Sequence record: PV611058
Source: Escherichia phage WPEC3
Length of the DNA stretch: 64,000 nucleotides
Direction: 5' to 3' (one strand)
Made by a program: the position numbers and the translations under genes. The notes beneath the pieces were generated by a model that was not told the origin of the DNA, searched no databases, and was given only the letters and a program-made list of their open reading frames with translations. How positions within the stretch are numbered: position 1 is the first letter of the stretch; each line of letters opens with the position of its first letter. This document shows, in pieces, positions 58,970-61,752 of the stretch.

Positions 58970-60481
58970 TTATTTTTTATCCTTTCCAACACCACGGTCG
59001 TACTCTTTGAATGAGTTATCAAGTGTAGTTAGTGCATACTCATATGCTTCTGGTGATTCAATGTCAACATCATCTGCACCATTTACTAAATCAGCCCAAG
59101 CCTTTTGAAGTTTACGAGCATTGTTACCAACATTATCTTTAATCCAACTAATATTTTTGTTGATACTTTTACTATCAGCACCTGCTTTTTTACCAATCTC
59201 GGATATCCACATCATTAACTTTTGAAGTTCATGAATTGATTTATCAGTCATTTCAAGATGTTCTTCTTCCATACCGTCAGAATCAGATGAACCAACGTCA
59301 ATTCCATGTTTAGCTAATAGTTTACCAAGTTCAAAGAATGCAGCTTCAGCAGGGAAGTCATAACCTTTGTCTTTGTAGTTATTCCATGCACTATCAAACT
59401 CGTCAACAAAACGGTTAGCATAATCTGGATTTTTAACTAATGCTTTATATACTGCCATTGCATGTTCAAAACCTTCTTTATCTGACCCAAACTCTTCCAT
59501 CTCAGGACGATGAATGTATCCATCCATATCAACGGTATCAGGTAGATCTTCTTGCTCAGGCTCAACATCTTTCTGTTCAACTGCACCTTCTTCATCTTTA
59601 CGTAGTAGATATCCATCAGGTGTCACTTTCTCACCATGTTCTGCTTCATACTTTTTCATAGTGTTGAATGCAGCATCCATAGCTGTTACGAAGCGACTTT
59701 TCTCACCTTGTACATAAGATTTAAGTGCACTGTTAACTGCATCTGATACGAGCTTAACCTTATCGTCTTTACCTTCTAAACGGTTTTCAAGTTTAGCCAG
59801 TACATTCTTGACTTGCTGGGCATTAGCACGGTCTGCTTTACCAATACTATCAAAAGTTTTAAGAATACCATCAAGACTTGCTTCACCCTGTTCAGGTTCT
59901 TTCGAATCTTCTTTGTGTGTACCTTCAAGTGCACGCATGATAGTACTGAATACTTCAGTGGGTTCAGTGCTCTTATTACCTTTCATTGCATCAAGTACAG
60001 CTTGTGCTTTACCTTTGAGTTCTTCTTTAGGAACTGCCTGTAGTGCTTTGACAATACCCTGAATCAACTGTGGTTTGTTAGCAAAGATCTTACCTAAGTT
60101 ATCAGATAACTCTTTAACAGGGTTAGCTGCTTTAGGAGCTTCTGGTTTTGGTTCTTCTTTAGGAACTGCTTGTTCTTTCTCAGCACGTTCCATATCAGCA
60201 AGGCGTTGTTTCTGTGTTGCGTTAAGAAGACCTAATGAGTTAACATAACGTAGCTTTTCTAGCTCAGTCATGTTCTCAGTACTCTTAACTTCACCTGCTT
60301 CTGCGTTTGCCTTACCAGCTAAACCTGTCCCTTGATTACGTGAACCACGTGACCCCTGTCCTGCTTGGTAGCTATTTTGACGACGATTGCGTTCACTCCA
60401 TTTATCAGAGTGACCTGCCATGTTCCCGCCATTTTTATCAGTAAATTGACCTGGCATTTGATTTCTCTCCATAGATTTCAT
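58970..60481 (-). CDS. late protein (503 aa), possibly virion-associated
   Basis: T4-type late promoter TATAAATA about 22 nt upstream of ATG; shares two motifs with 61329-61712. Confidence 0.7.
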   Translation of the reverse strand: MKSMERNQMPGQFTDKNGGNMAGHSDKWSERNRRQNSYQAGQGSRGSRNQGTGLAGKANAEAGEVKSTENMTELEKLRYVNSLGLLNATQKQRLADMERAEKEQAVPKEEPKPEAPKAANPVKELSDNLGKIFANKPQLIQGIVKALQAVPKEELKGKAQAVLDAMKGNKSTEPTEVFSTIMRALEGTHKEDSKEPEQGEASLDGILKTFDSIGKADRANAQQVKNVLAKLENRLEGKDDKVKLVSDAVNSALKSYVQGEKSRFVTAMDAAFNTMKKYEAEHGEKVTPDGYLLRKDEEGAVEQKDVEPEQEDLPDTVDMDGYIHRPEMEEFGSDKEGFEHAMAVYKALVKNPDYANRFVDEFDSAWNNYKDKGYDFPAEAAFFELGKLLAKHGIDVGSSDSDGMEEEHLEMTDKSIHELQKLMMWISEIGKKAGADSKSINKNISWIKDNVGNNARKLQKAWADLVNGADDVDIESPEAYEYALTTLDNSFKEYDRGVGKDKK

Positions 60482-60502
60482 ATTGTTTATTCTCTATGAC
60501 TA

Positions 60503-60510
60503 TATTTATA
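60503..60510 (-). promoter_or_regulatory. T4-type late promoter TATAAATA
   Basis: exact TATAAATA on the minus strand upstream of 58970-60481. Confidence 0.65.
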
Positions 60511-60562
60511 GTATAAAGAAAAGGTTGACCGAAGTCAACCCTATTTTCACTGTACTATACCA

Positions 60563-60859
60563 TTAGTAGTTACAGTCAGCTTTCGCTGTGAATGTTTTAC
60601 TTTCTCCGCGTTGTGTGGTGATTCGTCCGAGCAAAGTAGTTTTGTCAATAGTCATTGTAGTTAGTACTGGAACATTACCTTCAAAGTCAATAGCTTTGAA
60701 ATTGTAGGTGGTTTCATTCTCCACTACACTTGGACCAAAGAGTTCATATGTGTTGATTTCAAGTGTGTCACCATCTGAACGCAACAGTGTGCAGTCCAGA
60801 TTAGGAGTAGCCAGTACTGGGAAAGCCAAACACATCATCATTACAATAATTAATTTCAT
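60563..60859 (-). CDS. hypothetical secreted protein (98 aa)
   Basis: ORF; signal-peptide-like MKLIIVMMMCLAFPVLATP; SD AGGAG. Confidence 0.6.
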   Translation of the reverse strand: MKLIIVMMMCLAFPVLATPNLDCTLLRSDGDTLEINTYELFGPSVVENETTYNFKAIDFEGNVPVLTTMTIDKTTLLGRITTQRGESKTFTAKADCNY

Positions 60860-61119
60860 TTCACTTCTCCTGTTTTTTTCTTAGGATCAACCAATGACCA
60901 AATGAAGAATCCGAGAATTACAAGTACCCACAGAATCATGATAAAGAAAGCAAACAGTACAATAGTATTTGTCAAAAAGAAATACAATAGAATGTTCGAC
61001 CCAATACTACATACAATCAATGCAGCTTCATGTTTAACAACACGAATGGCAGTAATGAGTGCGGGAAGAAATCCGACAAATAACAGTACTAACGCATATA
61101 GTGATAATGTTTCAGCCAT
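60856..61119 (-). CDS. small membrane protein (87 aa)
   Basis: ORF; two hydrophobic segments; SD AAGGGA. Confidence 0.6.
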   Translation of the reverse strand: MAETLSLYALVLLFVGFLPALITAIRVVKHEAALIVCSIGSNILLYFFLTNTIVLFAFFIMILWVLVILGFFIWSLVDPKKKTGEVK

Positions 61120-61127
61120 GATATCCC

Positions 61128-61241
61128 TTATTTGGTTTGTTCAACACTAGGTGTATTGATATAGGTGTCAATTGAATAACATACTGTACCCACTACAACA
61201 GCAGCGATTAGGGCAGCGATGATGAATTTAGTACCTTGCAT
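61128..61241 (-). CDS. hypothetical small membrane peptide (about 37 aa)
   Basis: short ORF MQGTKFIIAALIAAVVVG...; SD GAGG; hairpin-embedded promoter upstream. Confidence 0.35.
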   Translation of the reverse strand: MQGTKFIIAALIAAVVVGTVCYSIDTYINTPSVEQTK

Positions 61242-61328
61242 AATTTAATACCTCACGTTGTTTGTATTTTGTATCACTTGATGAAAATATTATACGACAA
61301 AGGGCTGACTGAAGTCAACCCCTTTTAA

Positions 61329-61712
61329 TTATTTTTTAAACTTATGTTTTTCGCCTTCAATAGAGTTCACGATGTCATCATGAATCTTGCGAAGGTTATG
61401 AGTTTTCTTTAGTGCTTCATGTAGTGCACGGAATGCTGCGTGTACTGTTGCCTTGAAGTGCTCTTTAGGAGTCACTTTAAGTTTCTCAATGATATCACGT
61501 ACATAAATTGGATGATCTTCAAATACACGATTCAATTCATGACCTAGTGATTCTAGACTGAAAGCTTTTTCACGTGAAGGACGATCATGTGCAAGACTTT
61601 GGTCAGGCTTTAGTAGACCTAGTGAATCAAGATACTTATGCTTATGTGCATTATCAATTCCAGAAATATCCACATCATGCGATGGATCTTTCTTATTCCA
61701 TTTATCAACCAT
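61329..61712 (-). CDS. late protein (127 aa)
   Basis: T4-type late promoter TATAAATA at 61745-61752; SD AAGGAG; motif sharing with 58970-60481. Confidence 0.65.
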   Translation of the reverse strand: MVDKWNKKDPSHDVDISGIDNAHKHKYLDSLGLLKPDQSLAHDRPSREKAFSLESLGHELNRVFEDHPIYVRDIIEKLKVTPKEHFKATVHAAFRALHEALKKTHNLRKIHDDIVNSIEGEKHKFKK

Positions 61713-61744
61713 TTCATACTCCTTAAAGAGATAAATTACTTTAA

Positions 61745-61752
61745 TATTTATA
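61745..61752 (-). promoter_or_regulatory. T4-type late promoter TATAAATA
   Basis: exact TATAAATA on the minus strand about 30 nt upstream of the ATG at 61712. Confidence 0.65.

Follow-up and report, generated by a model that had tools for sequence, protein, structure and literature searches.

Within the 64,000 nucleotides of Escherichia phage WPEC3 examined here (record PV611058; this whole stretch is hereafter called the window), two genes, designated A and B, each follow an exact copy of the octamer TATAAATA, the same octamer as that of the late promoters of phage T4. A preliminary description of this DNA had proposed that both are late genes, that their products share short motifs and that these products may be packaged into the phage particle; both open reading frames (ORFs) exist as it described them, and both of the motif pairs that it quoted are found in the protein sequences. 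The genes of the 2.9-kb stretch that holds A and B (58900-61800) lie on the minus strand throughout. A search with this stretch returned fEgEco12 as the closest nucleotide match (99.7% identity), together with BF17, WPEC5, vB_Ec-M-J, Turkey3 and Ecwhy_1 at 99.2-99.6% (99.5% for WPEC5 over 58900-61800) and with 121Q and PBECO4 at 94% identity and a coverage of 72%. On the strength of these similarities the window is assigned to an Asteriusvirus-type ('Rak2-like') jumbo coliphage, a myovirus.

Orthologues of gene A are 121Q gp201, fEgEco12 g555, phAPEC6 gp035c, JP4_543, RaK2 ORF275 and CBB_38, and those of gene B are 121Q gp199, fEgEco12 g551, phAPEC6 gp037c and JP4_541. The gene order matches that of 121Q (gp199-gp200-gp201), fEgEco12 (g551-g555), phAPEC6 (gp037c-gp035c) and JP4, and identity between the proteins of the window and the Asteriusvirus members of the family, which occupy the same locus, is 94-100%. 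Both ORFs are annotated "virion structural protein" in 121Q and fEgEco12, and the PHROG profiles matched by gene A (phrog_20398, 5.7e-245; phrog_16530, 2e-40) carry the label 'virion structural protein' as well; gene B matches phrog_16530 (7.7e-55). With the PHROG 20398/16530 family of Rak2-like virion proteins the two genes have in common a leader, a core domain and the upstream late motif, and by these profile matches A and B are members of it. The phAPEC6 orthologue of A, gp035c (L003 2202-3455), bears the GenBank name 'chromosome segregation protein', which derives from a very weak SMC/SbcC similarity (0.039) mentioned in the submitters' note; this was not reproduced here, as no Pfam match was found, and the label is probably misleading.

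The short motifs noted earlier are indeed present, but the similarity of the two proteins is not limited to them. BLASTP aligns residues 75-187 of A with residues 23-120 of B (26% identity, E = 5e-9), and in a 28-sequence family alignment B corresponds from end to end to the N-terminal ~190 amino acids (aa) of A, from which it differs by two deletions, one of a Gly/Ser/Arg/Asn-rich stretch and the other of a Pro/Glu/Lys linker. The similarity is a true homology, and A and B are paralogues with a common N-terminal module. The start of gene A had been placed at 60481. We consider the ATG at 60457 to be the most likely start instead, given that a GGAGAG Shine-Dalgarno sequence stands 7 nt 5' of it, that the matching start is annotated in 121Q, fEgEco12 and phAPEC6, and that the N-terminus so obtained (MPGQF...) agrees with the MP(G/S/D/E)xF that is conserved in every homologue of the A family.

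The two copies of TATAAATA lie at exactly the coordinates first reported for them (Table 1), and they are the only ones in 64 kb on both strands, against 13.8 +/- 3.5 expected from shuffled sequences; every one of 100 shuffles gave at least two copies. The 7-mer ATAAATA is likewise found twice, at the same two sites, where 42.6 +/- 6.9 copies would be expected, an approximately 20-fold depletion. The signal of the motif in the window is one of avoidance, not of enrichment, and its sole survivors precede A and B. The distance between motif and start codon, previously given as 22-30 nt, is corrected to ~32 nt for B and ~45 nt for A (21 nt if 60481 is taken as the start of A), and the spacing at both genes falls within the range found at the virion genes of 121Q. 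Upstream of B the motif is kept in 121Q and phAPEC6 despite divergent sequence just 5' of it.

Elsewhere in the phage group the same motif accompanies virion genes. Eighteen copies of ATAAATA lie in the structural module of 121Q (298.6-348.5 kb), 16 of them 23-71 nt 5' of a same-strand start codon, and the genes so preceded include those for the major capsid protein (CTATAAATAAT), the scaffold, the prohead protease, the baseplate hub and the tail fibre, as well as the 10-kb gene 582. Between 1 and 50 kb of 121Q, six of nine copies are upstream of a gene start: five stand 29-44 nt before it, at four virion genes flagged by mass spectrometry (MS) and at the gene preceding the structural gene at 35613, and the sixth stands ~90 nt 5' of the annotated gp18 start. 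The motif is depleted in all segments examined, both in the window and in 121Q. At the A-family gene itself, ATAAATA or CTAAATA is found 38-53 nt before the start codon in 13 of the 13 phages examined, which represent Asteriusvirus, Alcyoneusvirus, Mimasvirus and Eneladusvirus together with the unclassified Hallingskeid and Munch. It has also been reported that ATAAATA/CTAAATA precedes 35 structural genes of CBB, and that it occurs in GAP32 too (PMC5259590). Two further copies of ATAAATA, in the early region of 121Q, stand 23 nt 5' of a tRNA-Gly and 78 nt 5' of a tRNA-Thr (L005 22659-22665 and 27818-27824; 72.7 and 77.8 kb); these may reflect either chance or late transcription of the tRNAs.

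A sigma factor suited to such a motif appears to be encoded by the group. In 121Q, the annotation of gp591 reads 'sigma factor for late transcription', homologues of CBB_244 are present in 32 Escherichia jumbo-phage records including WPEC5 (75.6% identical to CBB_244), and a match to cyanophage gp55 (1e-9 to 1e-10) covers the C-terminal third of CBB_244, while a Pfam search of the CBB_244-type sigma gave no match. Given the motif statistics, the presence of the same motif at capsid genes and the gp55-type sigma, the proposal that TATAAATA is the late promoter of this phage group is well supported, if by sequence comparison. The likeness to T4 late promoters extends from the octamer to the lack of a dedicated -35 element, the position a few tens of nucleotides 5' of virion genes, the avoidance elsewhere and the gp55-type sigma, which is also encoded in this clade; unlike in T4, the clade's working consensus, drawn from sequence comparison alone, is the 7-mer ATAAATA (CTAAATA in Mimasvirus and Eneladusvirus).

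The description of A and B as late genes stands in so far as the motif acts as the late promoter of the group, but the label is incomplete, for sigma-70-like promoters are found at both genes as well. The late motif of gene A shares one base with the -10 hexamer of TTGACT-17-TATACT, the -35 of which lies inside a terminator-like hairpin, and the sigma-70-like promoter of B stands ~35 nt 5' of its late motif. In a regular-expression scan, TTGACx-16/18-TAnnnT overlapping the late motif was found in 11 of the 13 phages (12 if the TATAAA of KP13-7 is accepted), and the double promoter of the A-family gene, sigma-70-like and late, is kept across the four named genera and the two unclassified phages. 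As such, A and B probably have both early and late expression modes, the early one being suggested by the consensus matches and by their conservation. In Mimasvirus and Eneladusvirus the arrangement takes another form: upstream of the A-family gene lies TTGACA-16/18-TATAAT with CTAAATA within the spacer (L006 2390-2500 for CBB; L015-L018 90-200), and this promoter is bracketed by a 10-bp inverted repeat, AATCCCCTAA...TTAGGGGATT. After the repeat comes a run of T residues reaching as far as the ribosome-binding region, and the whole forms a terminator-like stem with the promoter in its loop.

The sigma-70-like promoter of gene A belongs to a repeated element. A composite of GGGTTGACTTCGGTCAGCCC, T-rich sequence and a -10-like hexamer occurs seven times in the window against 0.02 expected, always on the coding strand, and copies of it flank both A and B; all seven have TTGACT (-35) in the 5' arm of a hairpin and the -10-like hexamer 17-18 nt downstream, and one of the seven, that of gene A, carries the late motif. 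Promoter-early stem-loop (PeSL) cassettes have been described for T4-type phages (PMC2839356, PMC4122927; Arbiol et al. 2010, Comeau et al. 2014). Like these, the elements of the window combine a stem-loop with a sigma-70-like promoter, are repeated in a hyperplastic region and are found at an indel between close relatives, a single case in which the segment 60563-61119 is flanked by two of them. They depart from the cassettes of T4-type phages in having the -35 within the hairpin's 5' arm and in their sequence, GGGTTGACTTCGGTCAGCCC, which is peculiar to this phage group.

The suggestion that A and B are packaged is supported by published MS, in which orthologues of both have been found in purified virions. 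In phAPEC6, gp035c was represented by 8 unique peptides (28.8% coverage) and gp037c by 5 peptides (48%) (PMC7247149); in JP4, JP4_543 was represented by 2 peptides (5% coverage) and JP4_541 by 4 (29%) (PMC12648861). For the A family, CBB_38 was detected in CBB virions with 9 peptides and 56.6% coverage, and GAP32_032 and RaK2 ORF275 are recorded as detected in virions in supplementary file 5 of the same paper (PMC5259590). Virion packaging of A and B is thus supported by MS on their orthologues, not on WPEC3 itself.

The predicted architecture of the two proteins is modular. An AlphaFold2 (AF2) model of A (mean predicted local distance difference test score, pLDDT, 69; predicted template modelling score, pTM, 0.28) begins with a basic (pI ~11), disordered leader rich in Gly/Ser/Arg/Asn (residues 1-57); a helix with an invariant K-x-x-Y-x-x-x-L-G-L-L (60-97) and a Pro/Glu/Lys linker follow, then a predicted four-helix domain (113-177) and further helical modules at 195-274, 320-383 and 405-488 with acidic disordered linkers between them. 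In the AF2 model of B, residues 1-50 are disordered and residues 53-126 form a four-helix domain. Intermediate forms made up of the leader and the shared domain alone include P0080 (171 aa) and CBB_38 (172 aa), and most of the distant members of the family consist of leader and core in ~160-180 aa. The long forms, found in Asteriusvirus, Alcyoneusvirus and their relatives, are mosaics, with modules gained and lost even between near-identical genomes: a 495-aa set is shared by the window (fEgEco12) lineage and 121Q, the form in phAPEC6 and JP4 measures 417 aa and that in JNE01 606 aa, and one helical module is also encoded by itself, as ORF P0094. The extreme C-terminus of A (58970-59000) is shorter and different in the window/121Q lineage, the proteins of the window and of 121Q ending in ...EYDRGVGKDKK and those of most relatives in ...Y(E/D)NGNVTxWEKDIMSKYGK.

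The family is confined in its breadth. It numbers 67 clusters in a set of 5.8 billion proteins, and a profile search run exhaustively over 1.84 billion representative proteins returned 33 matches, all of them from Rak2-like phages; those examined among the 33 comprised leader/core-only forms, mosaic relatives and one module standing alone, and none was fused to an enzymatic domain. The leader occurs in one place per genome, or in two where the terminal repeat duplicates the A-family gene, and the notion that it is a targeting tag common to several proteins of one genome was rejected on that ground. Neither A nor B passes the Pfam threshold, a sequence profile search of the PDB gave no match (best E = 0.91), and a Foldseek comparison of the A model with the PDB gave no fold match (best E = 0.5). 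We also considered whether the helical modules of A are repeats of one unit and rejected this, the best pair in hhalign having E = 0.01 and a probability of 4%.

Table 1. Genes, promoter elements and neighbouring features of the A-B locus, in coordinates of the window.
Feature	Position	Strand	Remarks
Gene A	58970..60457	minus	495 aa, 54.9 kDa, pI 5.1; frame open from 60481
Gene B	61329..61712	minus	127 aa, 14.8 kDa, pI 9.1; AAGGAG Shine-Dalgarno
TATAAATA late motif of gene A	60503..60510	minus	first base is last base of TATACT hexamer
TATAAATA late motif of gene B	61745..61752	minus	exact octamer; kept in 121Q, phAPEC6 and fEgEco12
Sigma-70-like promoter of gene B	61787..61816	minus	TTGGAA-18-TATAAT with TG extension; 10/12 in consensus scan, pattern match only
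PeSL-like element before gene A	60510..60542	minus	terminator-like hairpin AGGGTTGACTTCGGTCAACCTT and TTGACT-17-TATACT
PeSL-like element after gene B	61289..61327	minus	hairpin GGGGTTGACTTCAGTCAGCCC holds the -35 of TTGACT-18-TATAAT
Terminator-like hairpin (PeSL-like) directly after gene A	58938..58963	minus	predicted from sequence
GGGTTGACTTCGGTCAGCCC copies	12032-12049, 52917-52934, 53638-53655, 58260-58277, 58942-58959, 60523-60540, 61303-61320	minus	
37-aa transmembrane ORF	61128..61241	minus	121Q gp200 orthologue; annotated in 121Q, fEgEco12 and phAPEC6
87-aa membrane protein and 98-aa protein with signal-peptide-like N-terminus	60563..61119	minus	between B and A
denV (endonuclease V) homologue	53203-53595	minus	62% identical to T4 denV over 131 aa

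The 87-aa and 98-aa ORFs are two additional small genes by which the paralogues are separated in the fEgEco12 lineage; they are absent from 121Q and phAPEC6, and neither has a Pfam or PHROG match. Further along the minus strand, three tandem ORFs of 112-122 aa (56474-56842, 56820-57167 and 57171-57509) look like paralogous multi-pass membrane proteins and have a similar ending, R-(D/N)-(K/N)-(M/L/I)-P-(N/E)-(R/K), and a 124-aa ORF at 58286-58660 (minus) has a low-complexity C-terminal half rich in Lys/Asp/Glu/Pro (KADKDSKDKKDKADKSDKKENKKKAKDDKDKK...).

Taken together, we consider it likely that A and B are paralogous minor virion proteins of an Asteriusvirus-type phage, expressed late as islands in a long early region; their genes lie apart from every structural module, the A-family gene is situated within the terminal repeat in CBB, and in the deposited records of several other genomes it falls in the first ~17 kb. 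Several considerations weigh against this reading. A literature search returned no transcriptome for any phage of the group, and we infer the timing of expression; a 2026 review of jumbo phages does not mention these phages. The authors of the CBB study found no gp33 or gp45 homologues (PMC5259590), and late activation may therefore differ from that of T4. Sigma-70-like promoters directly precede both A and B, so that 'late' may be half of the pattern. The phAPEC6 MS list includes an ssDNA-binding protein, a topoisomerase subunit and PhoH, and to be listed there denotes association and not a structural role (PMC7247149). Last, the JP4 abundances of the two proteins are 1.6e6 and 5.1e6, compared with 1.4e8 for the top protein among the table rows covered (PMC12648861), and it is on account of these low values that we regard A and B as minor components.

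The low abundance and the mixed MS lists would also suit an explanation in which the TATAAATA copies are simply AT-rich parts of sigma-70 early promoters and the abundant products of A and B, as early genes, stick to virions as contaminants. The one-base overlap of A's motif with the -10 of a good sigma-70-like promoter, the sigma-70-like promoters that precede the A-family gene in 11-12 of the 13 phages, and the situation of A and B in an early-gene region (in the terminal repeat, for the CBB gene) are all compatible with it. We nevertheless judge this improbable, as of the seven PeSL-type sigma-70-like promoters the motif is carried by that of gene A alone, as the two survivors of the strong depletion of ATAAATA both precede proteins detected in virions, and as the same motif stands at the same distance before capsid, scaffold and tail genes. 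Moreover, the CTAAATA of Mimasvirus and Eneladusvirus is separate from the -10, inside the spacer, yet conserved, and the proteins have been detected in five independent virion proteomes. A more serious competitor, although still one that we think rather unlikely, makes A and B external, as a capsid decoration, as the 'hair' fibres of phAPEC6 and CBB, or as an accessory part of tail or baseplate. Unassigned capsid and tail fibres and decoration proteins exist in phAPEC6 (PMC7247149), an appendage of extended shape might be built of small helical domains strung along flexible linkers, such as are predicted here, and the mosaic C-terminal modules recall the module exchange of host-contact proteins. 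The models offer no Ig-like, beta-helix or coiled-coil fibre features, however, and the gene lies a long way from the modules for tail, baseplate and capsid. The idea that A and B form the tail or capsid hairs is weak, because the A family is present, in single copy, in every Rak2-like phage examined whereas tail hairs were reported for CBB and phAPEC6 only (2017 CBB paper, PMC5259590), and because the CBB version, at 172 aa, is too small for 119-nm hairs; furthermore, the CBB authors (PMC5259590) expect GAP32 to lack the hair genes, yet an A-family gene is present there.

The proximity of a denV homologue raises the question of descent from the internal proteins (IPs) of T4. It had been pointed out that the T4 denV neighbourhood carries the IP genes, which is correct, as denV, ipII and ipIII are adjacent (NC_000866). 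In the present phage group the synteny is loose, the denV homologue and gene A being 5.4 kb apart and, in fEgEco12, separated by 15 genes; in that phage an HNH endonuclease gene stands just 5' of the denV homologue. If A and B were true homologues of IPI, IPII and IPIII, targeted to the capsid and trimmed by the prohead protease, one could appeal to this neighbourhood, to the small to medium size of these virion proteins, to the plasticity of the early region encoding them, and to the early-type promoters and stem-loops that stand directly upstream of the T4 ip genes (the nearest TATAAATA copies there being upstream of gene e). Such homology is exceedingly improbable and is refuted by the tests made. 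As the preliminary description had already surmised, the proteins do not resemble T4 IPs: BLASTP of A and B against IPI, IPII and IPIII detected no similarity (all pairs E >= 0.98), no T4 IP gave a tblastn match in the window (E >= 0.78), and the PHROG matches of A and B include no IP family. The capsid-targeting sequence MKTYQEFIAE / MKTFKEF... is absent, A beginning with MPGQFTDKNGG and B with MVDKWNKKD. The search for prohead-protease cleavage motifs that the preliminary description had recommended gave no N-proximal [LI]xE, the first being at residue 408 of A and residue 74 of B.

Analogy is a separate matter. Within the reading of A and B as minor virion proteins, our leading guess as to their place, though on balance a doubtful one, is that they reside inside the head with the DNA, as internal or ejected proteins that would be functional analogues, not homologues, of the T4 IPs. 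The latter are likewise virion-borne and encoded outside the structural modules near denV, with sequences that vary between close relatives; the part that they conserve is an N-terminal ~10 aa, as compared with ~80-190 aa in the A family, where it is present on one gene per genome. A location in the head is disfavored by the missing cleavage motif near the N-terminus and capsid-targeting sequence, and by the leader being found once per genome and not on several proteins. Bubblegrams of 121Q and phAPEC6 have disclosed a phiKZ-like inner body (PMC5646251, PMC7247149), and the phAPEC6 authors reported no sequence similarity to phiKZ inner-body proteins (PMC7247149). A and B are, like the phiKZ inner-body proteins, paralogous virion proteins, but their abundance appears low. 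More speculatively, and with a likelihood that we put lower still than that of the location in the head, the family may represent in Rak2-like phages the equivalent of internal or ejected proteins that are packaged in association with DNA, and maybe part of the inner body of 121Q and phAPEC6.

A scheme that would accommodate these observations can be outlined. Late in infection, a gp55-type sigma would bring the core enzyme of the host RNA polymerase to the -10-like TATAAATA, giving transcripts with leaders of ~25-40 nt. Gene A would also be read from the overlapping sigma-70-like promoter and gene B from the one ~35 nt 5' of its motif, both probably also early in infection. PeSL-type hairpins, acting as terminator and promoter, would insulate each gene and mark the boundaries of indels, perhaps with a role in recombination. 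The products would then be incorporated into the particle, a step shown by MS for their orthologues, and the conserved leader, the K-x-x-Y-x-x-x-L-G-L-L helix and the four-helix domain may together constitute the module for incorporation, with the exchangeable C-terminal modules of A as a variable payload.

That A and B are virion proteins of Asteriusvirus and that ATAAATA is a late motif in related genera is essentially known; the full paralogy of the N-terminal module, the architecture of leader plus mosaic and the double promoter kept across genera appear to be new details. In early regions the late motif is avoided strongly enough that finding a copy is in itself a pointer to a virion gene. 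Should the head-internal reading be true, the basic leader and the KYxxSLGLL core would represent a new incorporation or DNA-binding module, the exchanged C-terminal helical modules would be host-directed payloads, and the double promoter, early plus late, would give protein on arrival and immediately afterwards. A and B are as such concrete candidates for internal proteins of these 350-kb phages, which are being considered for therapy.

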